The notes under the pieces were generated by a model, which saw nothing but the letters and a program-made list of their open reading frames with translations, had not been told where the DNA came from and searched no databases. From a virus (Duplodnaviria; Heunggongvirae; Uroviricota; Caudoviricetes): 64,000 nucleotides of DNA. This document shows positions 26,819-60,916 of this stretch, piece by piece. The DNA lies in the IMG/VR virus record IMGVR_UViG_3300033124_000732. The stretch is one strand, 5' to 3'. Each line of letters starts with the position of its first letter. Position 1 is the first letter of the stretch. A program made the position numbers and the translations under genes.

Positions 26819-26822
26819 TGTT

Positions 26823-34093: not shown

Positions 34094-35176
34094 ATGACAG
34101 ATTTATACCATCAAATTTATCAGGGAGAAATATTTCAAAAGAGTCAATGTATTTGGCATGAAAATATGCTCATGAATTTCTTTCGAAGCAATTTGTTATC
34201 ACTTGGATATGAACCACTAAGCGACAATAATAAAGTTTATCAACGTGGCACACGCCAAGTTGTGATATGCCTGGTTGATGATTTTTCAACCTGTAGCACA
34301 AATCACAACACATCGTTGCCTTATCTTTTTGATAAAGACACAGTAGTCATCACAGACAATTACATTACTGTCCCAACTCAATATCAAGTGTGCCAACTAC
34401 CTCCTAGTTTTTTTGGCATATACAATCATACACCGTCTGACGCAAAATGGAACCCTGACAGACGTTTTAATTTTAGTGTAAACAGGTTGGATACTAAACG
34501 TATGTTGGTATTATTAGAAATATGGAACCGTGTTATGTTAATGGCACTTAACGGATTCAAGGTTGACAATTTGGATTATATTAATTTTAATTGTTGGTCC
34601 TGGTCTGGCGACAACGGTTCAGTCAATGGATTGAAAGAAAATTTTACACAGCAATGGCAACAATTGGAATTGCAGTATCAAGAAGTTTATCAACATGTAT
34701 ATGACGACTTGTTACCACACATGCCGTTTTGTAATCATGATCTCGAACACAAACAATCACATTTACAAGCCTGGGCTAATATTGTAATAGAAACTTACAG
34801 TTCGGATACCACTGTAGCCCTCAGTGAAAAAATGTTTAGAGCTTTGTGTTTGCCTGTGCCGTGGATTGTGTATTCGGGCAAACATACTGTGGCATACTTG
34901 CACAGTTTGGGATTTGATGTTTTACATGACTTAATCAATCATGACTATGATAGTATAATTGAAAATAAAACTGCTGACCCTGGAGATAAAATGGTAGTTT
35001 TTATCTTTGAAGGACATGATGCTGTCGAAAAGATTAAAGCTACGTCGTGGCCTGAACTATCTCAACGCTGTGAACAAGCCGCACAGCATAACCAAAATTT
35101 ATTAGCGCAAATGCAATCCAACTGGCCTACAGATTTTGCCAACTGGTGGCCCAGTGTAATTGAAAAAATAAAATAA
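34094..35176 (+). CDS. hypothetical protein (360 aa), paralog of 37377..38324
   Basis: ORF 33695..35176 trimmed to the Met at 34094 because the upstream part overlaps minus-strand genes. C-terminal block SEKMFRALCLPVPWIVYSGKHTVAYLHSLGFDVLHDLINHDYD aligns with the corresponding block of 37377..38324. Confidence 0.55.
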   Translation: MTDLYHQIYQGEIFQKSQCIWHENMLMNFFRSNLLSLGYEPLSDNNKVYQRGTRQVVICLVDDFSTCSTNHNTSLPYLFDKDTVVITDNYITVPTQYQVCQLPPSFFGIYNHTPSDAKWNPDRRFNFSVNRLDTKRMLVLLEIWNRVMLMALNGFKVDNLDYINFNCWSWSGDNGSVNGLKENFTQQWQQLELQYQEVYQHVYDDLLPHMPFCNHDLEHKQSHLQAWANIVIETYSSDTTVALSEKMFRALCLPVPWIVYSGKHTVAYLHSLGFDVLHDLINHDYDSIIENKTADPGDKMVVFIFEGHDAVEKIKATSWPELSQRCEQAAQHNQNLLAQMQSNWPTDFANWWPSVIEKIK

Positions 35177-36711
35177 TGTGCGGCATATTGTTTGTGAAAA
35201 GTCAGCGGCCTCTTGACCTTGACCTACACCTACAAGCAGTTGATAAAATACATGCTCGTGGCCCAGACTTCACACATTACCAGCATCATGACAATATTTT
35301 TATAGCGCAAACTGTGTTACATATCACAGGTGAAGATGAGTTTTATCATCGACCACGATCAGACTTCTTGGCCTACAATGGTGAAGTTTATAACTATCGT
35401 TGGTTTGGCCGATACACTACAGACACAGAATTAGTGTATCGCACTGTGCGAGAACAAAACTACAAAAAGATTCCGTACTTTGAAGGTCCTTGGGCTTGGG
35501 TGTACACTGATTTTGAGTCAGTGAGATTTGCAACAGATCCACAAGGCGAGCGTTGTTTGTATCGATATCAAGACGATGATATTTTGATTGTTAGTAGTGA
35601 AGTGTCGGCAATCTTGTGTTATACACAGCCCAAAATTCAAGTTGACGCATGGAGTCAAAAGCACTGGCCTACCATACGCCGCACACCTTATCAGGGCATT
35701 GAACGCTGTGAACCAGGTCGATTGTATACCGAAACTGGCTTGAGTTTTCAGCTTGACAGCATGTTTGACTGGGTCCAAGCACCACAGTCTATGAGTGACT
35801 CAGAAGCTCAAGAAGAATTTGATTGGATATTTAACAAGGTCATAGCAGACATGCGCCCTACGGAACCTGCAGGATTGACCTTTAGTGGTGGCGTGGACTC
35901 TGGAATCATACTGGCTGCCATGCCGGAGTTTGCGGGATTGTATACCACAGTGTGTGAAGGCAAAGACACTGTGAGCATGAGAATTAGAGATTTCTTAACT
36001 GATCAACAATGTCAAAATCTCACTGAGTTGCCCATGACCGAACGTGACTGGGCACAGGACTATGTTGACATCATTGAGTGTTCACAAATGCCTGTGCAGA
36101 GTTGGAGTTTTGTTGGCCAATGGCACATTGCTCATCACTGTCAACAACGTATCTTGTTTACTGGCATAGCCGCTGATGAATTATTTGGCGGATATCCTGT
36201 GTATCGCAACATGGCATTTGACATCAAAACATCTGCAAGTCCTTACAGTTGTTTTGATCCATCAGACACAGACAGTCAACGTCTTTGGGATCAGTGTGTG
36301 TCTGCGTCACAAGGGCATGCAGGTGCTGCCACACTACTAATGGATTACCTTGTGCAGATCACAGCAGTTGATGCACGTGGCGTAGATACCATGACCATGG
36401 CACACAGTATAGAACCGCGTTCGCCATTCATGCATCCTAAGATTATAAAGTTTGCTCTTAACTTACCTTGGCACTTGAGGCAAGGCAAACCATTATTACA
36501 AAACAAGTTTTTAGAAAAATGGCCTAGAGATTTACTGTTGCCCAAACAAGGATTTGCAGGACACTGCAACGACAGTTTGCCTTGGATGGGGGTACATGTG
36601 CCTGCATCTCTTGATCGATCTGAACAGTGGAAACAGATTCAGTTGGCTACTTTTTTACAATATTGTGGTATTGATTCCAGTCAATCACGTGATCAAACCA
36701 CTCAGGAGTAA
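35176..36711 (+). CDS. asparagine-synthetase-like glutamine amidotransferase (class II GATase plus PP-loop synthetase domain)
   Basis: N-terminal MCGI (catalytic Cys2). SGGVDSGI PP-loop in LTFSGGVDSGIILAAM. 511 aa. The ATG overlaps the upstream stop. Confidence 0.8.
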   Translation: MCGILFVKSQRPLDLDLHLQAVDKIHARGPDFTHYQHHDNIFIAQTVLHITGEDEFYHRPRSDFLAYNGEVYNYRWFGRYTTDTELVYRTVREQNYKKIPYFEGPWAWVYTDFESVRFATDPQGERCLYRYQDDDILIVSSEVSAILCYTQPKIQVDAWSQKHWPTIRRTPYQGIERCEPGRLYTETGLSFQLDSMFDWVQAPQSMSDSEAQEEFDWIFNKVIADMRPTEPAGLTFSGGVDSGIILAAMPEFAGLYTTVCEGKDTVSMRIRDFLTDQQCQNLTELPMTERDWAQDYVDIIECSQMPVQSWSFVGQWHIAHHCQQRILFTGIAADELFGGYPVYRNMAFDIKTSASPYSCFDPSDTDSQRLWDQCVSASQGHAGAATLLMDYLVQITAVDARGVDTMTMAHSIEPRSPFMHPKIIKFALNLPWHLRQGKPLLQNKFLEKWPRDLLLPKQGFAGHCNDSLPWMGVHVPASLDRSEQWKQIQLATFLQYCGIDSSQSRDQTTQE

Positions 36712-37357
36712 TAACAATTTCTGGATGAGCATGGGCATAGGCCACAAAGGCCTGCACACAATCTGATTCATTAGGTGTGACCCATCTGGTCTGGTCACTG
36801 TTGTATTCGTACCAGTACATGCCAAATGGTGCAGCGGAATCTGTCAGCCTAAAAGTAAACAACTGTCCAGGCCGTGCTCCGCATAATCGAGCAAACTGAT
36901 CCAACGTGGTCACAGGCTCAAGATGCTGATACTGATCGGCTCTGTTGACATGTGTGCTTATGAATGCTGGTACAGTTTGAATTTCTGGTATGCGTTCCAG
37001 ACATCTCAATCTACTGTCCCCGGTACCAGGGACTAGTGTACCATCTTGATCCAGCAACAACCAAGGTTTCACAATACCTTGTGTTCGAATATCATGTATC
37101 CACAGATTCAATTTGACCAAGTTAGCAATATCATAATGATTGCGAGCATCGGCAGCAAACCCATCTATGCCGTCGTGATCAAGCCATTCCATGGCCCATC
37201 TGCACAGTTCACCAAGTCGTTGGTTGGTTGGTAAGTTTTGAAATTCTGCGGTTGGATTCCAAAATAAACAATGTGTGCCATTGTGTAAACTGTCATGAAC
37301 AGGATCTTGGTCGCCGGGAAAATGTGCTTCAATTAACGGATTATTCCAGTACATCAA
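36647..37357 (-). CDS. hypothetical protein (236 aa)
   Basis: Convergent with the asnB-like gene (65-nt overlap). No motif recognised. Confidence 0.45.
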   Translation of the reverse strand: MMYWNNPLIEAHFPGDQDPVHDSLHNGTHCLFWNPTAEFQNLPTNQRLGELCRWAMEWLDHDGIDGFAADARNHYDIANLVKLNLWIHDIRTQGIVKPWLLLDQDGTLVPGTGDSRLRCLERIPEIQTVPAFISTHVNRADQYQHLEPVTTLDQFARLCGARPGQLFTFRLTDSAAPFGMYWYEYNSDQTRWVTPNESDCVQAFVAYAHAHPEIVITPEWFDHVIDWNQYHNIVKK

Positions 37358-37376
37358 ATACTTAGTAAATACTCCT

Positions 37377-38324
37377 GTGAACTATGCTGAATTAATTGCC
37401 CATACATTTGATCAATTGGGTGTAGAACTTGTGGCTGAATACAACTGTTTTCAACCCCCTTACAACTCACAATCTGGCTGGCCTCTTCGATTGCCCAATG
37501 TTGAGTTTGGTCCACGCACGTTGATACTGCTACACTTTCAAGACTTTGTTACTCCAGGATTAACAGAATTAGCACAAGTACAATCACACTATGGTCAGCA
37601 TTCTAATCAAGTGGTGGTAACATATTGGAGTCATGGGCTAGATCAGCTGTACTCTGGGCCTATCAATCTTATTGAGTTTAGCAATCATAATCTAGCAACC
37701 TGCGAGACTATTAGAAAACGACAAACAGAATGGCAATATCACTTTGAACAACCTAGATCCATGGCCTGGCAATGTCTGAATGGTAGAAAATGCAATCACA
37801 GATTGCAAGTAGTAAACATTCTTAAAACCTGGCCAGATGGTATTTTAAGTTATGGGGACGAAATATTACTTGACCAATGGAACTATTCTAGCTATCGCGG
37901 TACTGAAAATGACAAAAACTTTGTGCGTCTAGCACCATTGTATTCTCAGTGCTCTGTAAACATTGTTACAGAAACACAGTATGAAGACCGACCCGGCATA
38001 ATAACTGAAAAAACATTGCAGGCAATGATTGCCGGACAGATACCTATTTTGATTGGACATCCGGGTATTGTGCAAGACTGTCGAGAACTTGGATTTGATA
38101 TGTTTGAAGATTTAGTAAACACGTCGTATGATTGGTTGCCCAATGACCGTAGAGTCGAAGAAGCATTAAAACTTAATAAAGAGTTAATACTAGGCAATAT
38201 TGATCTCAAGCCATACCAAGAACGATTGCAACATCAAAAACAATTTGTGCTTGATGTGTACCCTAATTGGATACGAGCAAATTTTGTACGCCAGGCACAA
38301 TCATGTGCGATTAAGATACTTTAA
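37377..38324 (+). CDS. hypothetical protein (315 aa), paralog of 34094..35176
   Basis: C-terminal block TETQYEDRPGIITEKTLQAMIAGQIPILIGHPGIVQDCRELGFDMFEDLVNTSYD loosely resembles the EX7E nucleotide-sugar-binding region of GT-B glycosyltransferases. Confidence 0.5.
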   Translation: MNYAELIAHTFDQLGVELVAEYNCFQPPYNSQSGWPLRLPNVEFGPRTLILLHFQDFVTPGLTELAQVQSHYGQHSNQVVVTYWSHGLDQLYSGPINLIEFSNHNLATCETIRKRQTEWQYHFEQPRSMAWQCLNGRKCNHRLQVVNILKTWPDGILSYGDEILLDQWNYSSYRGTENDKNFVRLAPLYSQCSVNIVTETQYEDRPGIITEKTLQAMIAGQIPILIGHPGIVQDCRELGFDMFEDLVNTSYDWLPNDRRVEEALKLNKELILGNIDLKPYQERLQHQKQFVLDVYPNWIRANFVRQAQSCAIKIL

Positions 38325-38666: not shown

Positions 38667-38670
38667 CGAC

Positions 38671-39696
38671 TTACAAAGTAGGTTGATTGTGTTGTGCTTG
38701 GAACCGTTCGGGCCATGCTTCAGTCACTTGTTTTTGTTGCATTCGGTCCGGCCAATGGCCATTGCCACACATATTTTTGCAAATTTCCATGGGATTGGTT
38801 TCCCACCGATCACTCACACGATGAAATAATTCAAGAGCATGATCAAGTCCGTGACTGCTGTGATATTGAGAAAAATCTCCTAGCACTTCTTCAATTTCTT
38901 TTTGTGTTGAAGGCATAGCAGGACCGTATGCATTTTCGTTGATAAAACAACACGGCATATAAAGTCCGTTGGCACTTAAAAACAACTCATCAAATTGCTT
39001 GCCTATGCAATTAATTTTGACCGTGCCAGTGCCTTGATTTTCTTTCCAAGTTTTGGGTTGCTTGAGCCATTCAATTGGCCTAATAAGAGTTCGCTGACTG
39101 ACTTTGACCCCGAATGAATAAAATCCCATGCTCTTGGCCAACTTCCGCGCCTTCAACACTTGATGCTCGTTGTGTTCAAATACAATCATATCCCACACAG
39201 CCACCCCACCAGCATCAATGAATGCCTGAGCATTTTCCATGATCTTTTTCCACACAGTGCGTCGACGATATATGTGATTGGTATCTTCTATGCCATCCAA
39301 ACTAAAAGTCACTGTACTGCGTCGTTCCGGATTGTATTGAAAAAATTGTGCAAGCTCGCGCCACCATTCTTTATTTCTTGTACTACCATTGGTATGCAAT
39401 GCAAAGGTAACAGTGGGATTTACTTCTCTAAACCATCTGAGTATGTCAGTGCAATCTTTGGCCATGGTTGGTTCGCCATGAGTGCCTTCGAATTTAACAT
39501 GCTTGGCTTGTTTTAACCATTCATGATCTATCAAAGTTTTTAACACATCCAAGGTCAATGTGTTTTGTGGTAAGTTAGGATTTTCTACAATACCAAGTTC
39601 TGGATCATCATCTAGATATCTAGAACACTGCGGACAGGCTGCGTTACAGGCTGTTGACAACTCGATATTAAGTTTGGTCGGCCATTTGTCAAACAT
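38671..39696 (-). CDS. radical SAM enzyme (341 aa), possibly SPASM/twitch-type
   Basis: CxxxCxxC in LSTACNAACPQCSRY. Additional Cys cluster (PCCF...CKNMCGNGH) near the C-terminus. Confidence 0.65.
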   Translation of the reverse strand: MFDKWPTKLNIELSTACNAACPQCSRYLDDDPELGIVENPNLPQNTLTLDVLKTLIDHEWLKQAKHVKFEGTHGEPTMAKDCTDILRWFREVNPTVTFALHTNGSTRNKEWWRELAQFFQYNPERRSTVTFSLDGIEDTNHIYRRRTVWKKIMENAQAFIDAGGVAVWDMIVFEHNEHQVLKARKLAKSMGFYSFGVKVSQRTLIRPIEWLKQPKTWKENQGTGTVKINCIGKQFDELFLSANGLYMPCCFINENAYGPAMPSTQKEIEEVLGDFSQYHSSHGLDHALELFHRVSDRWETNPMEICKNMCGNGHWPDRMQQKQVTEAWPERFQAQHNQPTL

Positions 39697-39699
39697 ACG

Positions 39700-39987: not shown

Positions 39988-40018
39988 AGATAAACTCCGT
40001 GTTTATTTATCCCAATAA

Positions 40019-40231
40019 CTATGCAGATTTAAAACTGCCACCTGACAAAACTACCTCAATTGGCTCATTTTGCCTGGCCTGTTCTCTGCGTGATTGTTCT
40101 AGCGCCAACAACAACTTGGTTATATCACCATGCAAGTCTTTGGCATCACGCACGGACATGATAAGATCTTTCTGTCCACGGCTTTCTGCTGCCTTGATTG
40201 AGTCAATAAACCGATTGATGTGCAAACTCAT
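40019..40231 (-). CDS. hypothetical protein (70 aa)
   Basis: ORF with an ATGA overlap to the next gene. Confidence 0.3.
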   Translation of the reverse strand: MSLHINRFIDSIKAAESRGQKDLIMSVRDAKDLHGDITKLLLALEQSRREQARQNEPIEVVLSGGSFKSA

Positions 40232-40563
40232 TTTTTAAGATATGGTTCTAAATTAGGAGGAGTCCAGCCTACTGGCTTGAGTACCTTACCATCTTCGCGC
40301 TTGCGAACCTTGCCTGTTTCTTTGTCGATCTTGGCAAAGTTTGTGGTCATGACTTCCTTCCAGCCACCTTCGGCATCAGCACCATAGCTGTGTAATGCAC
40401 CAATTGTAACAACAAGGATATCCAGCAACGCATCGACTATTTCAACTTCGTCGTCCTCGGCAAGAGCAACCTTGAGCTCTTTGTGTTCTTCTTCGATGAG
40501 AGCACAGTACATATCAAACTGTGTGCCATTAAATTTGTCAACGCTTTGGTCACAAGCCTTCAT
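40228..40563 (-). CDS. MazG-like nucleoside triphosphate pyrophosphohydrolase (putative)
   Basis: All-alpha EExxE...D pattern (ALIEEEHKELKVALAEDDEVEIVDALLDIL). Start set at the internal Met; the ORF track extends to 40647. Confidence 0.5.
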   Translation of the reverse strand: MKACDQSVDKFNGTQFDMYCALIEEEHKELKVALAEDDEVEIVDALLDILVVTIGALHSYGADAEGGWKEVMTTNFAKIDKETGKVRKREDGKVLKPVGWTPPNLEPYLKK

Positions 40564-40576
40564 AAATTTTTCTTGA

Positions 40577-41023
40577 TCACGAAAGGGATTCACTAGCCAG
40601 CTCCTTGGTGTAAAATGGTCCTTGATACTTGTAACGATCAAGTGCAATCAGTTTAGGGTTGCGCACAATCTTCCATGAGCGATGTTGTTTTACTGTGTAC
40701 CATCCGGCTGCGAACCATGACTTGGATTTCTCTTGTTTGGTAAACAGCGGCAACTTCAGTCTCACATTCCACAATCCATTGTAGGTCTTACACCCGGTTT
40801 CATAACCGTGAACTGAATCATTAGGTGGTGGGGTGACTGTTTCGGAAGGTTCAAAAGTGATGTCAATCACTTCTCTAACCATGGGCATGGTCTTGTAATT
40901 GGATACTTGATTTTGTATTTTTACAACATAACCATCTGCACTGGCCTCAATGTTACCAATCTTTTGATTGTTTTGTTTGAGAATCCAGTATTGATTGTCA
41001 ATTACTGGTTTTGCTACTATCAT
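40577..41023 (-). CDS. hypothetical protein (148 aa)
   Basis: ORF only. Confidence 0.45.
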   Translation of the reverse strand: MIVAKPVIDNQYWILKQNNQKIGNIEASADGYVVKIQNQVSNYKTMPMVREVIDITFEPSETVTPPPNDSVHGYETGCKTYNGLWNVRLKLPLFTKQEKSKSWFAAGWYTVKQHRSWKIVRNPKLIALDRYKYQGPFYTKELASESLS

Positions 41024-42057
41024 TTTAACACTCCTTGATATGTTTGATTCAGCCAGCGACCAATTGGCTCTGCTTGGTCACTCAGCTTGGTGAGTTCATA
41101 CTTGCCACAGAATTTAAGAAAGTGTGCGCCCACCATGCCCGTGTCTTTAGCACTGACTTGTTCACTGATCACAGCATCCACAGTATCTTTCACTTCTTGT
41201 GGTTGTGCAGTGAGGTCAATCAGTGTGACATTACGTTCGTAGTCGTCAAGCACCTTGTGTTCTTTTTCTTCGTGGTCAGTCCAACGTTGCAACATGAGAT
41301 TGTTCCAATTGTAGCCTTTTTTGTTGCGATCTTCAAATGCTTCTGTAATGCCCACACGATTCTTTGTGCCTTTAACTGGTGCACCAGGGTATGCCGAGAA
41401 CACATTGTCGCCGGGATCACCGCGTACACATTTCAAGAACAACACCCACTTCTGATAGTCAGTTGGAGCCACAAAGTCTTTATCAGCTTTGCCTACTTTG
41501 ATCTTGGAATTGCTTTCAATTGTAAAGCTCAATTTGTTGCCTTTGGCATCTGTTACGCCATTAACACTGAACAGGTGATCGTTTATGCCATTGTACAATT
41601 GCACATTTGGTGCAACCAACTGAACGAAGTCTGAATCACTGCTAACGATAATATGTTCATCTTGGGGGTGTAGTGCAATCCAGCGGCCTATGATATCGTC
41701 CGCTTCTGCTGTTGCGCAACGGATCACGCTACAATTTGTTTTCTCAGACAAGTATTTAGTCAGTTCATCATAGGTTTCCCAAAACAACTTGTCCTCTTCT
41801 GCTTCAGTTTCGCTCATGGCACCACGTGCCACAGCACGATTGGCTTTGTAGGGTTTGTAGTGGTCTTTGCGCCAGCTGCGTCCTTCCAATGCAAAAACCA
41901 CATGGTCTACACCAAAACGTCTAGCTACTTTATTAGCACTCATCATGGTCAAGTGCAGTGCAAAGCCTAATTTAGTCCATGTGTCGCTAGCCCTGTGCGC
42001 CGAATGGCGGGCACGGAAGAACATGTTGGCAGTATCAATCAGTAGATATTTCATCAA
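41020..42057 (-). CDS. 5'-3' exonuclease / flap endonuclease (T4 RNase H-like, FEN family)
   Basis: YLLIDTANMFFRA N-terminal block, EADDIIG and SSDSDFVQL acidic clusters typical of PIN-like 5' nucleases. Confidence 0.75.
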   Translation of the reverse strand: MMKYLLIDTANMFFRARHSAHRASDTWTKLGFALHLTMMSANKVARRFGVDHVVFALEGRSWRKDHYKPYKANRAVARGAMSETEAEEDKLFWETYDELTKYLSEKTNCSVIRCATAEADDIIGRWIALHPQDEHIIVSSDSDFVQLVAPNVQLYNGINDHLFSVNGVTDAKGNKLSFTIESNSKIKVGKADKDFVAPTDYQKWVLFLKCVRGDPGDNVFSAYPGAPVKGTKNRVGITEAFEDRNKKGYNWNNLMLQRWTDHEEKEHKVLDDYERNVTLIDLTAQPQEVKDTVDAVISEQVSAKDTGMVGAHFLKFCGKYELTKLSDQAEPIGRWLNQTYQGVLK

Positions 42058-42763
42058 ATCGGTCCAGAAGTTTGTGTTGCTTTAAGTATTGTAACACATA
42101 TTCCGACCAAAATCTATGACCATTGGCTCCAAAGTGATAACTTTTGGGATTCACATGTTCGAATCCGTTGTTTTTTAGTATGGCATTCCAACTGTGTTCT
42201 CTTGAGTAAGGTTGGATGTAGTGATTTTGCCAATCTCTTTGATTTGGCATATCACTGAATGTGCTGTTACCGCTGTAGAAAAGATGCCGCACATTAAGGT
42301 CTTTTAGTCGACAATGCAGATGCCAGATTTTATTGTGCCACTCATCTGTTTTTTGATTCCAATTCACATCCAAAATGTACTGACGATATCTAGCTTCAAG
42401 TTCTGGTGGCACCATGTCTACACCACTGGCATTTACTTGATAGTGCTTGCCTTCGAACACCCATTCTTCTCGTTCCCATGTGGTCCATTGAATCACCATC
42501 ACAGTATCATACAAGCGGCTATAATTGTTGTGAATCCAATCTGTAGTAGTGCGCAGTATACGATCATTGCTGGCTGCTGTTTCGGCATCACAGTAAAATT
42601 CAGTGTTGAGCAATCGACTCAAATTCTTGCCCCAGCTGGCTTCCAAGTTGATGGGATGAGGGCGGCGGTCAATGCCGTATCGGCCATCATCCACAGCAAA
42701 CGCATCAGGAACCACTGCTTCTGCAGCCGCTGTGTGACTGCATCCATTTACATATAATATCAT
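42035..42763 (-). CDS. GCSH-motif protein, paralog of 5858..6448
   Basis: N-terminal YVNGCSHTAA, 242 aa. Confidence 0.55.
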   Translation of the reverse strand: MILYVNGCSHTAAAEAVVPDAFAVDDGRYGIDRRPHPINLEASWGKNLSRLLNTEFYCDAETAASNDRILRTTTDWIHNNYSRLYDTVMVIQWTTWEREEWVFEGKHYQVNASGVDMVPPELEARYRQYILDVNWNQKTDEWHNKIWHLHCRLKDLNVRHLFYSGNSTFSDMPNQRDWQNHYIQPYSREHSWNAILKNNGFEHVNPKSYHFGANGHRFWSEYVLQYLKQHKLLDRFDEISTD

Positions 42764-43619: not shown

Positions 43620-43628
43620 ATAGTTTCC

Positions 43629-53684: not shown

Positions 53685-54377
53685 TCATCGTGGTGCAAAG
53701 TCCTGTTGTAGTTTGATGTTGTCAAAGAATTCTTTCTTCACGCTTTGGTCTGACTTAAACGCACCGTGTAAAACTGTGGTTTGTGTAAGACTAGAGTGTG
53801 CCATGATACCGCGATTCTCACAACAACCATGGGTAGCTTGAATATAAACTGCGACATCTTTTGACCCGGTCGCAAATTCAATTTCGCGAGCAATATCCAT
53901 ACATAGTTCTTCTTGGAGAGTCCCACGTCTTGCACACCACTGCGCGATCCGCGTGTACTTGGATAGACCAATGAGCACGGGTCCAGCAATGATTCCAATA
54001 TAAGCCACACCCGTAACAGGTTGGTGATGATGGCTACACATGCTCTTAAGCTCTGAACGCACCACCAACATACCTTCGTACGCTCCTTCTGTGTCATTTG
54101 GAAACGCTGTAGCATTAGGGCTCTCCTCATAACGGCCAGCCATAATTTCATTGAAGTACATTTTGGCAAGACGCTGTGCGGTACCTTTTGAGTTTGGATC
54201 ATTTTCCCTGTCGATTAGTAATACATCAAGCACTTGTTCAAATGCGTTGGTAGCTTCGTTGATTAAACTGTGTTTGGTCTCTTCATCAACATACTCACTG
54301 ATGTTGTCTCCTGCCCAAAATCTTTTGCCTTCTGCCTTCATCTGTTCGCGAAGGACTTGTGATAAGTGTTTTTCCAA
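53685..54377 (-). CDS. folE: GTP cyclohydrolase I FolE
   Basis: CSHHHQP (CEHH-type zinc site) and HGCCENRG (HMCM-type) blocks. 230 aa. Confidence 0.85.
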   Translation of the reverse strand: MEKHLSQVLREQMKAEGKRFWAGDNISEYVDEETKHSLINEATNAFEQVLDVLLIDRENDPNSKGTAQRLAKMYFNEIMAGRYEESPNATAFPNDTEGAYEGMLVVRSELKSMCSHHHQPVTGVAYIGIIAGPVLIGLSKYTRIAQWCARRGTLQEELCMDIAREIEFATGSKDVAVYIQATHGCCENRGIMAHSSLTQTTVLHGAFKSDQSVKKEFFDNIKLQQDFAPR

Positions 54378-54429: not shown

Positions 54430-55026
54430 TTAGACGGAATCGTCAACGATTTTGATATTTCTCAAGTCAGGGTATGGCACATGTACGGGTTTGGGATTGT
54501 GTTCTTTGACACCTTGCAACAATGCCATACCTTGAACAGCATCTTCGATACTGGGTTTGTAATGATAGCCCACATGAAAAGTCTTTTGGTCTTGCCACGG
54601 AACCACAGTTAAGTCTCTGCCATCATAGCGTTGACGCAATATAGTTTCATATGCTATCTTGTCATCTAACAATATGGCACCACCATGCCCAATTGCCAAT
54701 GGCTTGTTATGGCCAAAGCTCAAACACTGCATGGTACCCAGGCGATACATGCCTGATTCGAGTCTACGAGCCGAGTCCCATATGCGGGTGCCATGGAACC
54801 GATATTCGCCGGTCCACTCCTCTTCTCGGTAGTAGTATTTGATACCCAATTTGTGCATGGTCATAGGTATGCTGAGATAGGTATATGGAGTCATTACAAC
54901 TTCTCTCACTCGATTATATCGCAAGCAAAGTTCAATGGCATGTGTACAGCAATCAGTCATGACAGCATACGGTGCTCCTGTGAACTCTGCTAGTTCGTCT
55001 TCAAACTTTTTTATCTTGTCGAACAT
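54430..55026 (-). CDS. DegT/DnrJ/EryC1-type aminotransferase-like protein, short form (198 aa)
   Basis: SFGHNKPLAIGHGGAIL resembles the DegT PLP-lysine block (SFHxxKxxxxGEGG). Only about half the normal length. Confidence 0.5.
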   Translation of the reverse strand: MFDKIKKFEDELAEFTGAPYAVMTDCCTHAIELCLRYNRVREVVMTPYTYLSIPMTMHKLGIKYYYREEEWTGEYRFHGTRIWDSARRLESGMYRLGTMQCLSFGHNKPLAIGHGGAILLDDKIAYETILRQRYDGRDLTVVPWQDQKTFHVGYHYKPSIEDAVQGMALLQGVKEHNPKPVHVPYPDLRNIKIVDDSV

Positions 55027-55963
55027 ACCAGTTCCATGCGTGTTGAATCATGTCATCTAAATCATGATGCCGCCAAGCCCCTGCAACCAGGTTAAACTTG
55101 TCTGGACTTGCAATCAGTTCAGGTGGATCGCCTGCTCGACGAGCCTCTGTGCCAATGTGAGGCATCTTGCCAGTGATAGTTTTTGCCTGCTCTATTACCT
55201 GTTTGACACTGAACCCTTGATTTGATCCAAGGTTGTAGACCCCTGCAGGGATTTTGTGATACAACGCCAAAGCGTGGGCTCGGGCGATATCATCCACATG
55301 CACATAATCGCGAATGCAAGTACCATCAGCAGTAGGGTAATCATCACCATATATTCTGAACTGTCCATCATCTCTTGTGGCCTCTAAAAATTTAGCAATC
55401 AAGTGTGTGGCACCTGGCTCTTGTCCGTGCCTACCTTCAGGATCGGCACCACAAGCATTGAAGTAACGAAAGCCCACATAGTCAAGACCGTATGCCCGGT
55501 GATAGCTTTCCAGCATCATGTCACTCATCAGATTAGATTCACCATACGGACTGACAGGCTCTTTAGGATCCACTTCGTGTATGGGATTCATGATAGGTTC
55601 GCCGTATGTGGCAGCACTAGAACTAAACACCAACTTACAACGAGGCATGCTTTGTTTAACAATGTCCAACAACTTCAATGTTTTGGCCACATTGTTGTTG
55701 TAGTATTCTGAAGGATTCTTTACTGAAGGACCCACAAGACTGGTGCCAGCACAATGGATAATAGCATTGGGTTGTTTTTGTATGATCCAACTTAGGGCAG
55801 TATCAGTAGAAAAATCTTCACACAAGAATCCGTCGGGCACACCTTGAAGATGCTTGGGAGGATCTCTACGGTCAATGCCGTACACTGTATGCCCAGCATC
55901 TTTCAATGTGAGCATGGTCTGACCACCAATATATCCAGCTGAGCCGGTTACAATTACAATCAT
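55001..55963 (-). CDS. NAD-dependent sugar epimerase (UDP-glucose 4-epimerase GalE-like)
   Basis: GSAGYIGG Rossmann motif and overall GalE-like blocks. The YxxxK catalytic motif aligns to PYGESNLMS with both lysines replaced; worth checking. Confidence 0.7.
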   Translation of the reverse strand: MIVIVTGSAGYIGGQTMLTLKDAGHTVYGIDRRDPPKHLQGVPDGFLCEDFSTDTALSWIIQKQPNAIIHCAGTSLVGPSVKNPSEYYNNNVAKTLKLLDIVKQSMPRCKLVFSSSAATYGEPIMNPIHEVDPKEPVSPYGESNLMSDMMLESYHRAYGLDYVGFRYFNACGADPEGRHGQEPGATHLIAKFLEATRDDGQFRIYGDDYPTADGTCIRDYVHVDDIARAHALALYHKIPAGVYNLGSNQGFSVKQVIEQAKTITGKMPHIGTEARRAGDPPELIASPDKFNLVAGAWRHHDLDDMIQHAWNWYVRQDKKV

Positions 55964-57174
55964 GCTTCGATCTTTACAACTTGATATTTTTCGTGAGAAG
56001 CGTGGTCACGATAGCGATTGCCCGCTCTATTCCATTGCTCACCCACACCGCTAATAATATCCACAACACGATCCACAGTGGAATTGTTCCAGTCGGAAAT
56101 AAGTCCCATGTTGTGGTGCGGCTCGCGAAGTAGGTTTTGCATTTTGTGATAAGCATCATCTATGCTCCAGGGAATATACAGTCTATTGGGATCGTTTGCG
56201 AAGGTTTCAGGAAAACTGCGATACGCTGGATATAACACATTGCATCCAAGAGTATCGGCCTCTGATACGGTGTTTGAAACCCAATCTTGTAAAGCACAAT
56301 TAAACAACACACGAGTATTGTTAAGATGAGCATAGTATTCATTTTTGCTTATGTTGTCGTAGATTTTGAGCTTGCCTTGTGCCTCCATACGGCGGGCACG
56401 TTCAATATACTCTGGATTGTTGGATCGGAGAGGTCCGCCACTGTATATTGCAAACTCACATGGCTCGCTGGTGAGCTCACCATACATCTCAATGAGGTCC
56501 ATAAAGAAGCCAGGTTGCTTCTCTTGATCGAACCTTGCTGCGAAACCCACCCTCCGCGGACGCGAAGCAAACGGCGTGATATTTCCCGTTCCGCCAATTC
56601 TCTCCAGAACTTCTGATTTGCCAAATGCCAGGCCGGAAATGTTGTAGATTGGAGCAGTCCATCCAGCGATGCGCATGTGCGCGACCATTTCTTCATTGGT
56701 AGCCAATACTGCACCCCCCGAGAAAGCCACCATCTCATTGACCATTTGTTCATACAAGTTCATCCACTTTGCCATTCCCCACACATGCACGAAGTCATCA
56801 GGATCAATGGCCTGTGCCAAACAACGAACATAGATCTTTGGACATTGTTCTTGTGGAATCTGGTTCATGATGTAGCCAAGACTTTCAAAGCCTGGTTGGA
56901 ACATGTCTTCAAAGTAGATCACATCATCACCAGTTACATCACCGTTCTTCATGAGCTGAACCAAGTTCATCATCTGGCTCATGGCAAAGTAACTGCGTCC
57001 GTGTGCGTCCAACACCTGGCCTACCGAGATGGCTTGTGTGTTGTCGATTGTGGTGCCAGGCACATACACAACATCTAGTCCTCTGCGGTCAAACACACGT
57101 CGATTCCATTCTGTCAGTTGCAGTGTGTAGCGGGCTTCATAACTTTCCAAGCCCATGTAGAATAGTTTTCTCAT
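55960..57174 (-). CDS. T4 alpha-glucosyltransferase (AGT)-like GT-B glycosyltransferase (about 404 aa)
   Basis: N-terminus MRKLFYMGLESYEARYTLQLTEWNRRVFDRRGLDVVYV parallels T4 AGT MRICIFMARGLEGCGVTKFSLEQRDWFIKNGHEVTLVY. Start at the ATG at 57174. Confidence 0.5.
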   Translation of the reverse strand: MRKLFYMGLESYEARYTLQLTEWNRRVFDRRGLDVVYVPGTTIDNTQAISVGQVLDAHGRSYFAMSQMMNLVQLMKNGDVTGDDVIYFEDMFQPGFESLGYIMNQIPQEQCPKIYVRCLAQAIDPDDFVHVWGMAKWMNLYEQMVNEMVAFSGGAVLATNEEMVAHMRIAGWTAPIYNISGLAFGKSEVLERIGGTGNITPFASRPRRVGFAARFDQEKQPGFFMDLIEMYGELTSEPCEFAIYSGGPLRSNNPEYIERARRMEAQGKLKIYDNISKNEYYAHLNNTRVLFNCALQDWVSNTVSEADTLGCNVLYPAYRSFPETFANDPNRLYIPWSIDDAYHKMQNLLREPHHNMGLISDWNNSTVDRVVDIISGVGEQWNRAGNRYRDHASHEKYQVVKIEA

Positions 57175-57395: not shown

Positions 57396-57406
57396 TTTGT
57401 TTCCTA

Positions 57407-57883
57407 TTAGATAGCAATGTTGATATTGGGGCGGTGAGTTTCATATTTAATAAGGGCTCCATTTTCACCATCTTCAGAGACCTCAATCCAGACTGAGCGT
57501 CCGGGATACCTGCCAGCGATTTGCAAATACAAATCGTCCGACATCATTTCACATGACTTGTAGTCAAGTTGGATGGTTCCTTCTTTGTAGAGCTTTTCGA
57601 GCCATCGCTTGAACTGGATGAATTCAATGTCTCTATCATTGTGTACAACAGAAATCCACACCCGGAAGTGGAAGATATGACGGTGAGGAGTACCAAGGAA
57701 ACTAACGTCATACTCATCGCCCGTCTTAAGGGCTGGATCTGTTGCGGCTGCTGGGTAACAGTGGATGCCTTCTCTTTGGAAGGTAACCCAGATTTGTCTT
57801 TGAGCGGCATGCTTGATTCTTTCTACAGTGTCTCGTTCAGCTTGTATCATTTGATTACTTCGTCCTTTGTGTATTGATCCCAT
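57407..57883 (-). CDS. hypothetical protein (158 aa)
   Basis: ORF only. His-rich patch TPHRHIFHF. Confidence 0.45.
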   Translation of the reverse strand: MGSIHKGRSNQMIQAERDTVERIKHAAQRQIWVTFQREGIHCYPAAATDPALKTGDEYDVSFLGTPHRHIFHFRVWISVVHNDRDIEFIQFKRWLEKLYKEGTIQLDYKSCEMMSDDLYLQIAGRYPGRSVWIEVSEDGENGALIKYETHRPNINIAI

Positions 57884-58380
57884 GAGGTAAATGTTTTTCT
57901 ATCCAGCAAATTATGCAGGCTGTGACACCATACTCCGGGGTTGGTTGCTTTGAAATCTTTGTCGTCCAGTTTGATTGTGGTATTGTAACCTAGCAGTTTG
58001 ACGTAAGGTAGTTTTACAGATATCATTGGGATAAATTGTGACTGTTCGCACAAACTGCCTTCAGCTAGGCCTTCCACAGCACTGACATCAAGATCTAGTG
58101 TACACCAGTATCCTTTGTCCAACCACGGTTGAATCATGCGTTCCCACGCAGTCCAGGCTTCAGCATCATTGATAGTGGGATTTGGAAAACTTTGATTGGC
58201 ACCAAAATAGATGTGTGTGATTGGTAGTTTTGATCGTGCATCAATTTCGCCACGCTTCCAGTCAATATCTGATGCAGTTTGCAATCCTACCACAAACAAT
58301 GTGCGGTGTCCAGCAACAGGGCTGGCCTCAACTTCTGTACCTACAAAGAAGTTGGTGTCTGCGTGTCCTTGGCGATTCAT
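57847..58380 (-). CDS. hypothetical protein (177 aa)
   Basis: ORF only. Confidence 0.45.
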   Translation of the reverse strand: MNRQGHADTNFFVGTEVEASPVAGHRTLFVVGLQTASDIDWKRGEIDARSKLPITHIYFGANQSFPNPTINDAEAWTAWERMIQPWLDKGYWCTLDLDVSAVEGLAEGSLCEQSQFIPMISVKLPYVKLLGYNTTIKLDDKDFKATNPGVWCHSLHNLLDRKTFTSWDQYTKDEVIK

Positions 58381-59927
58381 TTGATTTGCTCACTTTCAAG
58401 CAGTTGTAATGCTTCTAATTGTAACTGGTCTTCGGGTTCTGTGTCAACTTCTGGTTGTTCGAAAGAGAACAGTGCGTTGAATTGTGTGCGAGCGTTTTTG
58501 GTCTTCTTACCTTTGAATCCTCGTGTGCCCACAATCTCCATCCAATAACTATCATATGTTTCAATAATAGCGTCAGCAGTTTCTCGATCTGGTGCGGCAA
58601 AGATTGCTTCCACAATGTCTTCAAATCGAGCATAATCGCCTGTGCTACGGCGCATCATGGCAGGATGTTCACCTGCATCAAATCGTCGATTGGCTTCTTG
58701 CACAGCAGTTAGATGCATCCAAACATTGTGCCCCATCAGCAGTGCATATGAGAATGAATCCCATGATGTCTTGCCTTCTTTGCCAATCTTATTTAGGTCG
58801 CCGGGCTTGTAAATGCAAATATCTTTCATCTGAAACAAGTCACTTAGTGGGCTGTCTTCCCAGCGTGGATAGATTCCATCTGCTACCACGCCAGTTGACC
58901 ACTTGCGTGTGTCTAGGCTGTATTTTTTATCGTCGGCACTAGGACCCATGCGATACGACCACTTTGAATCATGTTCAAATACATTTTCGTAATACACTTG
59001 TCCGTTGGCTGTGGCAAGGAATGGACTGGCACAATCAAAACTAATAGTAAAAGCCGGATTAACGTATTTTCTAACTGCTCGTTGAATTACGGTCAGTAGC
59101 ACAGCCCATTCTAACTTTGATGTGCCCAAGAAGTGCATCCAATCATGCACACCTTCTTGCAACAAATTGTCATAGCGCAGGGCTACCAGGCGACGTAGAA
59201 CCAAATGAACGTCACACATGTTTTGTCCACCCATTGACCAACCGTCAAAATGTGTGTCTGGATACTTGACAGGATCACAGTATTCTTTCATGGTTTCGTA
59301 CCATTGGTCTGCACTGCTGTGGTTGTCGCCTTGCAATACATTTAGAATCCTAGTACCACCATTACGAATACCCTTACGATGTTTCATAAAGTATTCGTTG
59401 TTGAACTTGGTAGCGTCTACTGCTTCTTGCAGTGTGGAGATTTGACAGGCCTTGCTGGCTTTTTTATCGTGAATGACCCAGGTTGGAATATCAAGTGTCA
59501 TGCAGTAATCAGACACATTGTCCAGCCAATTAAGCACAAGCTCGCGTTTCTTTTGAGCTTTAGCACAACCTGAGTTGGCCTTCCAATCACCTTCCCACAG
59601 ACCTTTGGCAATCTGGAAACCACCAGAGTCGCCCAGGAGAAATGTACCAGGCTCTCGGTTTCGTACCATGTCCTCAGACCAGTCTTGTTTTGAGAGATCG
59701 AGGTTAGCATGTCCTCCAGACGCAAGTGACCAACGATACGGAAATAAAGCCTTGGTGGAGTTGAGCCAATTAAGCTGTTCCATGTCTGTAAGGCCCTGTG
59801 GAAACCGTGCGGGATCTACATATTGTTCATTCCTTTGCTTGCCCACAAATGTGGAATAGAATCCGCTGATGGCTGGAAGAAACACAGCGTAATCCAATTG
59901 CTTGGTAGTTAAGTTATCTTGTGTCAT
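58377..59927 (-). CDS. tRNA-guanine-transglycosylase-like protein (DpdA-like candidate DNA 7-deazaguanine transglycosylase)
   Basis: FLLGDSGGFQIAKG matches the TGT catalytic-Asp block (xDSGGFQ). 516 aa. Lies within the FolE/QueD/QueE cluster. No obvious CxCxxC zinc site. Confidence 0.65.
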   Translation of the reverse strand: MTQDNLTTKQLDYAVFLPAISGFYSTFVGKQRNEQYVDPARFPQGLTDMEQLNWLNSTKALFPYRWSLASGGHANLDLSKQDWSEDMVRNREPGTFLLGDSGGFQIAKGLWEGDWKANSGCAKAQKKRELVLNWLDNVSDYCMTLDIPTWVIHDKKASKACQISTLQEAVDATKFNNEYFMKHRKGIRNGGTRILNVLQGDNHSSADQWYETMKEYCDPVKYPDTHFDGWSMGGQNMCDVHLVLRRLVALRYDNLLQEGVHDWMHFLGTSKLEWAVLLTVIQRAVRKYVNPAFTISFDCASPFLATANGQVYYENVFEHDSKWSYRMGPSADDKKYSLDTRKWSTGVVADGIYPRWEDSPLSDLFQMKDICIYKPGDLNKIGKEGKTSWDSFSYALLMGHNVWMHLTAVQEANRRFDAGEHPAMMRRSTGDYARFEDIVEAIFAAPDRETADAIIETYDSYWMEIVGTRGFKGKKTKNARTQFNALFSFEQPEVDTEPEDQLQLEALQLLESEQIK

Positions 59928-60916
59928 AGTAATTGTTTAAGACTCGATCCAATGGTTATGTGTTTATATGTTGAAATCTCGAGCAATTTTTGTACAGCCA
60001 ATTCATGATTTGGATGTTGCTTATTACCAATAACATCGTGACTATCAAAATCCTTGATATTCCATTTATCAATTTTAGTAACTTCTCCTAGAAATCCATA
60101 CTCAAGACACATATTAGAAAAGTTTTCAAGATCATTAAAGTTTTTTGATTGTAACACAAATTTTAATAGTACATTTGTGTTCGGTCTACGGTTTTTAGAT
60201 AACCAACTAAGATTATCCTGTAGTACATCAAACCGCCCAGGACGCCTGACTACTTCGTAAACTTCTTTACTACCAGCATCTACACTAATTAGAAATTCTT
60301 GAATGTTTGGTAATATACCACTGTCTGGTAATAATTTTTTCATCAACAATCCATTGGTAAAAAGTATAACACTTTGATTTGATTTTGGTTTCCAATTTAA
60401 CACCAATGGGCGCATGATCAAACTGGCCAATGGATCACCATTACCTGTCATAACGATTGACATCGGTTCTGTAAATTCATTAATCAGTTTAACAAAATGT
60501 TTAACCTGTGCAAGTTTACGTTCAAACACAGGGCCTTCGATATAGTTAATAGCACCGACGCGACAACTTGGACAGGCCAAATTGCAACTATCATCAATGG
60601 CAAAATTAATTCTGTAGTCCGGTGTTGTTATATTTCTGTCCATAACACCGCACGTATCTACAGCACAATAGGTAAATTTACGATCCTTGACAGTTTGTTG
60701 TAGTTTCTGTGCTATAGGATTGTTCCAAATATCACTCAGTGATTCAAAATCGAGTACGTTGCCTACACTAACCGGTAACCATGCATCACATATACATAAA
60801 AAACAATTTCCCTCAAGATTGACGGTCAAAGTTTTAAACGGTCGATCACAGTCGTGTGCAATCTCAGTACTTCCTCTTGAATAACTTGAAAAAATAAAAG
60901 GATTTACTTGTATCAT
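59924..60916 (-). CDS. radical SAM enzyme (330 aa)
   Basis: CxxxCxxC in DDSCNLACPSCRVG. A second Cys pair (GNCFLCICD) near the N-terminus. Confidence 0.6.
   Translation of the reverse strand: MIQVNPFIFSSYSRGSTEIAHDCDRPFKTLTVNLEGNCFLCICDAWLPVSVGNVLDFESLSDIWNNPIAQKLQQTVKDRKFTYCAVDTCGVMDRNITTPDYRINFAIDDSCNLACPSCRVGAINYIEGPVFERKLAQVKHFVKLINEFTEPMSIVMTGNGDPLASLIMRPLVLNWKPKSNQSVILFTNGLLMKKLLPDSGILPNIQEFLISVDAGSKEVYEVVRRPGRFDVLQDNLSWLSKNRRPNTNVLLKFVLQSKNFNDLENFSNMCLEYGFLGEVTKIDKWNIKDFDSHDVIGNKQHPNHELAVQKLLEISTYKHITIGSSLKQLL

Follow-up and report, generated by a model that had tools for sequence, protein, structure and literature searches.

Phages that encode DpdA, FolE, QueD and QueE without QueC have been found to carry DpdL, a paralogue of QueD in which the CxxxHGH motif has become LxxxHRHxF and which is proposed to decarboxylate 7-carboxy-7-deazaguanine (CDG) to 7-deazaguanine (PMC10516641). 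The same 2023 paper reported four new phage 7-deazaguanines and showed by mass spectrometry that all G in the DNA of phage phiST is replaced by 2'-deoxy-7-deazaguanine (dDG) (PMC10516641). Here we analyze a stretch of 64,000 nucleotides from IMG/VR virus record IMGVR_UViG_3300033124_000732 (the window), in which FolE, QueD, QueE and a DpdA-like transglycosylase all occur together with DpdL, with no QueC in view. The system works like the DpdL-type dDG system of phiST and Acidovorax phage ACP17, of which we consider it a variant, not something categorically new. Three features set it apart: its transglycosylase is long, has no zinc site and goes unrecognized by Pfam; it has a conserved GT-B glycosyltransferase as a partner; and throughout the lineage it is accompanied by tailoring genes, one of them for a cobalamin-dependent radical-SAM enzyme (SAM, S-adenosylmethionine). 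With moderate confidence, we read the locus as a DpdL-type 7-deazaguanine DNA modification system with tailoring partners, interleaved in the replication module of a jumbo phage.

The window phage is an uncultured jumbo phage from a lake, and its lineage is very abundant. The window represents about one fifth of a genome of about 350 kb, and related contigs reach up to about 350 kb. The phage has no cultured near relative, and a megablast search with 12 kb of the window against 50,697 phage records gave no match. Open reading frames (ORFs) were called over the 64 kb, some of them with 5' ends extended too far, and about 70 were scanned against Pfam, NCBIfam and PHROGs. Conservation within the lineage was assessed in two sets of 80 IMG/VR loci, one centred on the transglycosylase (67-94% identity) and the other on a B12-binding radical-SAM enzyme; counts are given below as loci with the gene over eligible loci of the relevant set. 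Between 33.7 and 64 kb of the window, almost every gene lies on the minus strand and the genes are closely packed.

An earlier reading of the letters of this stretch (the original prediction) had placed a 7-deazaguanine system around a DpdA-like transglycosylase. Our searches bear this out, with FolE, QueD and YhhQ recognized by hidden Markov models (HMMs), QueE by matches to PDB sequences and the fold of the tRNA-guanine transglycosylases (TGTs) by structure, and domain searches likewise confirmed the proposed AsnB-like, MetK, GalE, HIT, MazG, GT2, methyltransferase, cytidylyltransferase and four radical-SAM proteins. FolE (GTP cyclohydrolase I; 53685-54377, minus) matches its family in Pfam (1.3e-38) and NCBIfam (5.4e-41) and is present in 40/54 loci of the set centred on the B12-radical-SAM enzyme. 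QueD (6-carboxytetrahydropterin synthase; 50149-50646, minus; 46/63 loci) matches PTPS at 5.5e-16, above the cutoff, and TIGR03367 at 4.3e-9. Its motif, CxxxHGY, is a variant common to phage QueD proteins, including those of phiST and ACP17. QueE (7-carboxy-7-deazaguanine synthase; 44987-45859, minus) is of a long form, with an insertion of about 36 residues between the CxxxC pair and the third cysteine when the sequence is read by eye. Five NCBIfam models of QueE match residues 2-51 only (TIGR03365 at 1.1e-11, N-terminal), with a best score of 44.7 bits, below the family cutoff of 206. The sole significant matches among PDB sequences, however, are three QueE structures, with GGEP aligned. The protein is 45% identical to QueE of cyanophage BUCT-ZZ01, is also found in PA5oct, Xanthomonas phage X1, ACP17 and phiST, and occurs in 60 of the 78 eligible loci.

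DpdL itself, which was missing from the inventory of the original prediction, is encoded at 57407-57883 (minus; the start is probably at 57850) as a QueD-like T-fold protein (a QueD paralogue) of 158 amino acids. The ORF contains the motif FLGTPHRHIFHF, which fits the LxxxHRHxF signature; it aligns with the DpdL proteins of phiST, ACP17, Sinorhizobium phage Phosso, X1 and BUCT-ZZ01, and the motif is found in every member. The only family match of the protein is the unnamed PHROG phrog_17812, at 4e-35. By tblastn it matches ACP17 (54% identity, 3e-39) and, at 2e-9, the Cellulophaga phages phiST (CGPG_00067, which is DpdL; 32.5% identity), phi13:1 and phi19:2, and phmmer against CGPG_00067 gave 2.7e-14. 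DpdL is near-universal in the lineage, being present in 70/82 related loci.

In agreement with the original prediction, no QueC was found among the roughly 70 ORFs scanned in the window, that is, in about one fifth of the genome, nor did a census of 58 gene families located downstream of DpdA in relatives contain one. Since DpdL is present, the absence of QueC is the expected signature of the pathway and not evidence for a bypass. The earlier suggestion that an AsnB-like enzyme replaces QueC by amidating CDG directly is therefore abandoned; that gene is rare, lies on the opposite strand and is part of a separate module. The likeness to the described DpdL-type systems of phiST and ACP17 extends over FolE, a CxxxHGY-type QueD, QueE, DpdL with LxxxHRHxF, a distant TGT/DpdA protein and the lack of QueC in view; in phiST, as in the window, MazG is nearby (there it adjoins DpdL) and the system adjoins the DNA polymerase. 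By homology, we consider it very probable that the core pathway leads from FolE, QueD and QueE through DpdL to a DpdA-type exchange. FolE, QueD and the radical-SAM enzyme QueE would turn GTP into CDG, and DpdL would take CDG to 7-deazaguanine, making QueC unnecessary. A DpdA-type enzyme would then swap this base for guanine in the phage DNA after replication, conferring protection from restriction.

The predicted exchange enzyme is a protein of 516 amino acids (58377-59927, minus), which we assign from its predicted structure to a long, divergent subfamily of DpdA-like DNA-guanine transglycosylases. Searches of Pfam, NCBIfam, PHROGs and PDB sequences returned nothing for this protein, which contains the motif LLGDSGGFQ. 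It has over 7,300 matches among metagenome proteins, of which the nearest are 82-98% identical and located on contigs of up to about 350 kb, and an exhaustive search gave a family of 930 clusters at 50% identity. A profile built from 55 diverse members matched bacterial TGTs only marginally (E ~1), with DSGGFQ aligned to Asp102 of the Z. mobilis TGT. An AlphaFold2 model computed from the 55 diverse representatives reached a pLDDT of 90.2 and a pTM of 0.89, as compared to a pLDDT of only 52 with a shallow input of 26 close homologues. When the model was compared to the PDB with Foldseek, the top eight matches were all TGT or ArcTGT, and among the BFVD viral models the matches were TGT/DpdA proteins, such as that of phage nt-1 and the annotated transglycosylases of phages Motura and Bella96. 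The predicted structure is that of a TIM-barrel TGT fold.

The catalytic residues expected of such an enzyme are conserved. Across 55 homologues with 26-60% identity to the window protein, D100 (of DSGGFQ) and D298 (of 'SFDC') are invariant, as are S101, G103, H265 and G268, and D146, Q105 and N196 are nearly invariant. D298 aligns with 'ISYDS' of ACP17 DpdA and, judging by its motif, is inferred to be the equivalent of TGT Asp280. The family HMM recognizes ACP17 gp123 (6e-8; hhalign probability 96.6%, E 6e-10), a BUCT-ZZ01 protein and the 'queuine tRNA-ribosyltransferase' of X1, and its match to phiST DpdA3 (CGPG_00065), a founding protein of the DpdA3 subfamily along with those of Campylobacter phages, is marginal (E 0.017; hhalign probability 64% over 83 columns). 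phiST differs from the window phage both in having no GT-B gene and in its transglycosylase, to which the 516-residue protein is only marginally related. Compared to the bacterial DpdA (DNA preQ0 insertase, PDB 7ui4) and TGTs, the family shares the TIM-barrel TGT fold, the Asp of DSGG(F)Q and an FDC-type Asp that aligns with the nucleophile of TGTs, but it has no conserved CxCxxC zinc site and no DpdB/DpdC partners, escapes the Pfam TGT model and is extended at the C terminus by about 100 residues that include an acidic tail. The substrate is predicted to be 7-deazaguanine or CDG, whereas bacterial DpdA uses preQ0. On the strength of the structural model, we regard the protein as a genuine but divergent DpdA-type enzyme.

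A TGT-like enzyme could also act on RNA, by putting 7-deazaguanine into the GUN-anticodon tRNAs of the phage. The window contains 30 tRNA genes, among them all four of the queuosine family (His-GTG, Asn-GTT, Tyr-GTA and Asp-GTC), and YhhQ is a transporter for the salvage of queuosine precursors. However, the window yielded no QueA, QueG or QueF, the DpdA-like family does not conserve the zinc subdomain motif of tRNA TGTs, and the transglycosylase gene sits between clamp/PolB and RNase H. In addition, the DpdL-type module is tied to DNA by the mass spectrometry of phiST and by the restriction resistance of PA5oct. Given this link of DpdL to DNA and the replication-module context, a role in tRNA modification is highly improbable, and by analogy with phiST and PA5oct the base exchange would take place on DNA.

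The gene adjoining DpdL encodes a GT-B (GT4-like) glycosyltransferase of 404 amino acids (55960-57174, minus), identified by comparing a profile with GT4 structures of the PDB. A homologue search with this protein gave only sequences that are >86% identical, and the diversity was taken from cultured-phage loci. With the resulting profile, made from homologues of six lineages, all 10 PDB matches were GT-B proteins (best match 7ec1, E 3.1e-7, 267 residues), and the C-terminal nucleotide-sugar domain, with its R..EK.P and E motifs, is covered by the similarity. The original prediction had described the protein as T4 AGT-like; the GT-B fold holds, but the relation to AGT does not, as hhalign gave a probability of 0.6% to T4 AGT and 0.3% to T4 BGT. 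GT-B adjoins DpdL in six phage lineages, namely the window phage, PA5oct, Phosso, ACP17 (gp124), X1 and BUCT-ZZ01, and a DpdA-family gene lies alongside in five; in Phosso, the DpdA-like gene is found elsewhere in the genome, away from GT-B/DpdL. In the gene record of Phosso, the homologue is labelled a glycosyltransferase by its authors. The literature that we searched contains no discussion of GT-B as a partner of a DpdL-type system, and the neighborhood of GT-B with DpdL, and mostly with DpdA, appears to be a new observation.

A second conserved companion, a protein of 177 amino acids, is encoded between the DpdA-like gene and DpdL (57847-58380, minus) in 77/82 loci. Its family profile found no match among PDB sequences. 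A homologue (4e-11) is ACP17 gp122, whose gene lies immediately upstream of that for ACP17 DpdA, so that ACP17 shares with the window the whole five-gene string of 177-aa protein, DpdA, GT-B, DpdL and QueE. The Phosso 'glycosylase' was considered as another homologue and rejected (17% identity, no HMM match). Because the authors of the 2023 study could not reconstitute dDG from DpdL and DpdA, we propose GT-B and the 177-aa protein, on grounds of conserved gene position, as candidate components that the DpdL pathway may lack in its present description.

Among cultured phages, the transglycosylase family has its closest carrier in the Pseudomonas jumbo phage PA5oct (Wroclawvirus), with 35% identity along 80% of the protein. 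Its gene order of PolB, clamp, DpdA-like, a 353-aa protein, DpdL, QueE, a 128-aa protein and RNase H follows the backbone of the window from PolB to RNase H, the 353-aa protein corresponding to the 404-aa GT-B. In contrast to the window, only small ORFs separate DpdL from QueE in PA5oct, and the approximately 11 kb of sugar, methyl and radical-SAM genes are absent. A deazaguanine system had been noted in PA5oct in an earlier survey (PMC7824862), and PA5oct DNA resists restriction enzymes that cut at G sites and is targeted by nucleases specific for modified G (PMC12191111); in the literature searched, we found no published chemical identity of its modified base. Synechococcus phage BUCT-ZZ01 (ON615601, 56.7-75.9 kb) is a T4-like freshwater cyanophage in which QueE, XGPRT, QueD, FolE, two unknowns of 447 and 416 amino acids (the second weakly DpdA-like), a DpdL-like gene and GT-B are found; the last four genes are annotated as hypothetical. 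Its GT-B is 64% identical to that of the window. A further cultured Xanthomonas phage, BUDD, also has GT-B and DpdL together with a DpdA-family gene.

The region between DpdL and QueE is filled in the lineage by further enzymes. In the transglycosylase-centred set, a recurrent block reads PolB, methyltransferase-like, clamp, DpdA-like, 177-aa, DpdL, 73-aa, GT-B, GalE, DegT-like, FolE, HIT and QueD, and the B12-radical-SAM-centred set keeps the order HIT, QueD, B12-radical-SAM, GT2, methyltransferase, QueE, 128-aa, DUF6071 and RNase H. The original prediction had remarked that the locus holds far more chemistry than described systems need, and part of this surplus is indeed kept in position within the Que operon (GT-B, GalE, DegT-like, HIT, B12-radical-SAM, GT2 and methyltransferase). 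Conservation of the trio of B12-radical-SAM, GT2 and methyltransferase between QueD and QueE appears to be a new observation. The described DpdL-type systems, unlike the window, are without B12-radical-SAM, GT2, SAM methyltransferase, GalE, DegT-like, HIT, YhhQ, MetK or the PP-loop/PLP/AsnB proteins (PLP, pyridoxal phosphate).

The first member of the trio is a cobalamin-dependent (class B) radical-SAM enzyme (47448-49421, minus) with B12-binding (3.6e-11) and Radical_SAM (1.1e-9) domains, both above the Pfam cutoff, and a CxxxCxxC motif, CPYQCTFC. It is closest to the KedN5-type C-methyltransferases (NF033712, 2.1e-64), its score of 218 bits against a cutoff of 700 placing it outside that subfamily, and a weak family match to tryptophan 2-C-methyltransferase was also seen. 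Unactivated and aromatic carbons are the methylation targets of class B radical-SAM methylases. By analogy, C-methylation of the pyrrole ring of 7-deazaguanine, an indole-like target, would be chemically reasonable. The GT2-family glycosyltransferase (46619-47476, minus; Glycos_transf_2, 4.1e-6) lies beside the radical-SAM gene in 61/79 loci, and the class I SAM-dependent methyltransferase (45856-46629, minus) is found in 52/78 and matches Methyltransf_12 at 2.7e-20 as well as several related families. The other conserved tailoring genes encode GalE, a UDP-glucose 4-epimerase (55001-55963, minus; TIGR01179, 297.7 bits against a cutoff of 262.3; 36/48 loci), a half-length DegT/DnrJ-like PLP protein of 198 amino acids (54430-55026, minus; two short stretches of DegT_DnrJ_EryC1, 1.7e-16; 38/53 loci) and a HIT-family protein beside QueD (50730-51125, minus; Pfam HIT, 1.1e-10; 43/61 loci). 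A DUF6071 protein (42035-42763, minus; PF19547, 1.1e-6) is also conserved in the lineage, in 57/70 loci.

Glycosylated and methylated 7-deazapurines do exist as natural products, huimycin and dapiramicin being examples, and demonstrate that this ring system can be N-glycosylated and methylated. As in the window, genes for a glycosyltransferase and a SAM methyltransferase accompany the 7-deazaguanine core genes, but there actinomycetes convert preQ0 into free small molecules and no transglycosylase takes part, whereas in the window a DNA-type transglycosylase goes with the core genes in a phage replication module. On conserved position only, GT-B would belong to the same pathway as the core genes, with a UDP-sugar supplied via GalE and perhaps with the DegT-like and HIT proteins, and the same positional argument would add GT2, the SAM methyltransferase and the B12-radical-SAM enzyme. 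Our best guess is that a sugar is made and attached, or the pyrrole ring is C-methylated, or both, which would give an undescribed 7-deazaguanine derivative. That the DNA base receives such additional decoration is a tentative proposal, which we hold to be possible but short of probable.

The main competing explanation is that the phage makes plain dDG, as phiST does, and that an unrelated glycan module shares the early-gene region; the radical-SAM, GT2, GalE, DegT-like, methyltransferase and nucleotidyltransferase genes would then make an unusual sugar for another target, such as virion proteins or the host envelope. The slot downstream of DpdA is hypervariable in relatives and rich in sugar-tailoring enzymes, including enzymes acting on nucleoside diphosphate sugars, a pattern typical of glycan diversification; the census of 58 gene families found there includes 2-oxoglutarate oxygenases, OYE, sugar C-methyltransferase, UDP-glucose dehydrogenase, hexapeptide acetyltransferase, sulfotransferase, PfkB kinase and phosphoribosyltransferase. 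The DNA of phiST, moreover, is fully substituted with dDG in the absence of any tailoring genes, and Que-less viral contigs carry homologues of the B12-radical-SAM enzyme with the same partners (SPASM-first and twitch radical-SAM, 37377-like, SDR, DegT-like and DUF6071-like proteins). This explanation does not account for the position of B12-radical-SAM, GT2 and methyltransferase genes, tightly packed on one strand between QueD and QueE in most of the 80 loci, or for the association of GT-B with DpdL, and mostly DpdA, in six unrelated lineages, one of them a T4-like cyanophage with Que neighbors. We therefore consider plain dDG with a separate glycan module unlikely.

Several observations nonetheless weigh against a tailored DpdL-type system. 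The B12-radical-SAM homologues in contigs without Que genes within 10 kb are 51-58% identical to the window enzyme, and the existence of such cassettes means that the radical-SAM/sugar set can be independent and might act on a target other than DNA, which weakens the interpretation as a single pathway. As phiST makes plain dDG without GT-B, this glycosyltransferase is not needed for the known product. The decarboxylase activity of DpdL is itself a proposal, as dDG was not reconstituted from DpdL and DpdA in E. coli and other enzymes may be needed (PMC10516641). As for the transglycosylase, Pfam TGT (PF01702) gave no match to the window protein at E<=0.1 and matched two of the 55 homologues at E 0.04, and no conserved cysteine triad corresponding to the CxCxxC zinc site of TGTs is present among the 55; H400 (85% conserved) alone aligns with the 'EHN' histidine region of TGTs. 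Finally, some palindromes are under-represented in the window (AAGCTT, 1 observed vs 11.3 expected; GTGCAC, 3 vs 12.9; CTGCAG, 7 vs 17.6). Avoidance of G-containing palindromes hints at a protection that is only partial or confined to particular motifs and argues against protection of every G-containing site, although 64 kb of sequence makes this weak evidence. GCGC, AGCT, TGCA and GTAC are also avoided, and GATC, CCGG, TCGA and AT-only palindromes occur at expectation.

The Que-less cassettes, found on other IMG/VR contigs (e.g. 700-20600 of one contig), contain two B12-radical-SAM, two SPASM-first radical-SAM and one twitch radical-SAM enzyme. Also present are an SDR epimerase, DegT-like and DUF6071-like proteins and a homologue of the window's 315-aa protein (encoded at 37377); these genes are homologous to window genes. 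The SPASM-first architecture is represented in the window by a radical-SAM enzyme whose SPASM/twitch domain lies N-terminal to the core (59924-60916, minus; SPASM, residues 23-89, 2.2e-8; Radical_SAM, residues 110-264; 8/82 loci). A further twitch-type enzyme is encoded at 38671-39696 (minus; Radical_SAM, 1.3e-9; NF033640, 5.3e-17). All four radical-SAM enzymes of the original prediction are thus present, but only one of the two said to bind cobalamin lies in the region; the second is encoded at 21677-23308, where two TctC/Bug binding proteins flank it.

Other enzymes of the region are strain-level additions and not core steps: the AsnB-like protein, MetK, the PP-loop/PLP pair, YhhQ and the cytidylyltransferase. 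YhhQ, the queuosine-precursor transporter (49505-50131, minus; 19/63 loci), matches Vut_1 at 1.3e-21 and scores 100.4 bits with TIGR00697 against a cutoff of 50.95; its match to NF008406 (6.9e-49, 166 bits) falls below the cutoff of 252. MetK (43629-44729, minus) is a SAM synthetase with three S-AdoMet_synt domains (E 3e-58 to 4e-33) and is found in only 3/72 loci. The HxGH cytidylyltransferase, a nucleotidyltransferase of the RfaE-domain-II/TagD type (42760-43236, minus; 17/70 loci), matches CTP_transf_like at 2.7e-10 and, below the cutoff, TIGR02199 at 3.2e-22.

Two adjoining genes, which always travel as a pair, encode a stand-alone PP-loop ATP pyrophosphatase of the NadE/Asn-synthase type (51122-51955, minus; 8/54 loci) and a CobD/HisC-like PLP enzyme of 307 amino acids (51945-52868, minus; 4/50 loci). 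The PP-loop family is small (63 proteins), and two homologues carry PF00733 (Asn_synthase). The original prediction had counted PP-loop ATPases; the assignment of the stand-alone enzyme rests on its SGGLDS motif and on weak profile matches to NadE, GMP synthase, TtuA and TilS (E 0.005-2). QueC was considered for this enzyme and rejected, as the profile has no QueC match and the C-terminal cysteine cluster (zinc motif) is missing. The PLP enzyme matches Aminotran_1_2 at 2.2e-5 and the CobD model TIGR01140 at 1.3e-9, below cutoff. The two PLP aminotransferases of the original prediction accordingly survive as PLP-type matches, one being the half-length DegT-like protein and the other this weak CobD/HisC-like match. 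As a speculation, the pair would suit amidation of a carboxylate with an amine derived from decarboxylation.

The AsnB-like amidotransferase (35176-36711, plus) has an Asn_synthase domain (2.8e-22) and GATase_7 and occurs in only 5 related loci. It belongs to a separate accessory module, mostly on the plus strand (34076-38324), together with a 366-aa protein and a 315-aa protein (37377-38324); a 236-aa ORF within the module (36647-37357) is on the minus strand. From translations read by eye, the 315-aa protein seems to be a paralogue of the 366-aa protein, and one cluster of relatives holds homologues of both.

These accessory enzymes are the basis for another explanation, in which the product is of an amide or preQ0 type: CDG would be amidated by the PP-loop or AsnB-like enzyme, giving dADG or an N-substituted amide, or preQ0/preQ1 would be imported by YhhQ or finished by a host QueC. 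YhhQ does exceed its family cutoff, the PP-loop enzyme resembles carboxylate-amidating enzymes of the NadE/Asn-synthase kind, with a CobD-like partner that could supply the amine, the AsnB-like protein has both glutaminase and synthetase domains, and there is precedent among 7-deazapurine natural products for tailoring CDG by amide formation (bioRxiv 10.64898/2026.04.15.718813). Yet all of these genes are sporadic as compared to DpdL, the PP-loop profile does not match QueC, and the AsnB-like gene is set apart by strand and module. An amide or preQ0-type product is therefore quite improbable, and the DpdL-type pathway with tailoring partners remains our preferred interpretation.

The genes described here do not form the single hypermodification cluster of about 28 kb that had been proposed. 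Since PolB, clamp and RNase H/FEN are present, the region is a replication module and not a dedicated island: 26.8 kb of replication genes interleaved with modification genes, not one operon. PolB, the DNA polymerase (62630-63946), a probable sliding clamp and RNase H form, with small conserved ORFs, a replication backbone common to PA5oct. The RNase H/FEN 5'-3' exonuclease (41020-42054, minus; 5_3_exonuc_N, 6.1e-20; 47% identity to PA5oct RNase H) is part of this backbone and not a modification gene. The probable clamp (60920-61642, minus; 240 amino acids) matches phrog_12062 at 6.8e-32 and a Phosso homologue at 1.1e-34, and its position beside PolB fits this assignment. In Phosso the homologue is labelled 'DNA polymerase III sliding clamp beta', and the PA5oct counterpart is labelled 'structural protein' on mass-spectrometry evidence. 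Fixed between PolB and clamp in 74/82 loci is a fast-evolving protein (61692-62633, minus; median identity only 36%) with a weak C-terminal match to a SAM methyltransferase (E 4e-5). Of the two SAM methyltransferases that had been predicted, the one at 45856-46629 is thus clear, and the second is this weak match, which lies beyond the end of the proposed cluster. A MazG-like pyrophosphohydrolase is encoded at 40228-40593 (minus; PRA-PH, 2.5e-9).

The remainder of the window includes RNA genes. The 30 tRNA genes cover all 20 amino acids (2286-9076, 12828-12983 and 26640-26897, minus), and at the edge of the array lies a full-length GOLLD RNA (9175-9639, minus), which scores 203.8 bits with RF02032 (gathering score 150) and contains a tRNA-like element at 9506-9576. 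A tmRNA of the Betaproteobacteria type (15783-16187, minus; RF01850, 108.8 bits; permuted-tmRNA RF04321, 119 bits) carries the tag ANDEQFALAA and hints at a betaproteobacterial host. Between 400 and 29100, host-like metabolic and envelope genes are densely clustered, encoding TerC, CMD, AhpC, a Gram-negative porin (13704-14585), TauD, a DctP TRAP-transporter binding protein and SPFH/Band7; no close bacterial relatives of the porin and DctP were found in GTDB genomes. The same phage, with 100% identical proteins, was assembled independently in IMGVR_UViG_3300042900_000355, SRR15557810, ERR1823953 and ERR1823954, all from public metagenomes.

Literature searches on DpdL, recent DpdA work and hexose-bearing deazaguanine returned nothing beyond PMC10516641. 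The locus is of interest for its abundant lineage, for its candidate parts of an unreconstituted DpdL pathway and for the four cultured phages that carry the module. Of these, PA5oct, ACP17, X1 and BUCT-ZZ01, we predict that they carry something other than plain dDG. In its most specific form, our proposal would be that the DNA of the lineage, and probably that of the four cultured phages, contains a 7-deazaguanine glycosylated by GT-B, that in the lineage the B12-radical-SAM enzyme also C-methylates the pyrrole ring of the base, which bears a tailored sugar, and that GT-B and the 177-aa protein are the enzymes missing from the DpdL reconstitution; taken as a whole, this is a doubtful conjecture, somewhat unlikely to hold in full. 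If it were true, glycosylated 7-deazaguanine would have no precedent in natural DNA as a purine that bears a sugar. Hypermodification of phage DNA decides whether restriction enzymes, CRISPR nucleases and modification-sensing defences are effective, and it is a source of new chemistry for biotechnology. Even plain dDG, if that is the product, would extend the 2023 discovery to a major group of environmental phages. As standard annotation misses this large DpdA-like family, jumbo phages with deazaguanine-modified DNA may be far commoner in lakes than catalogues suggest.

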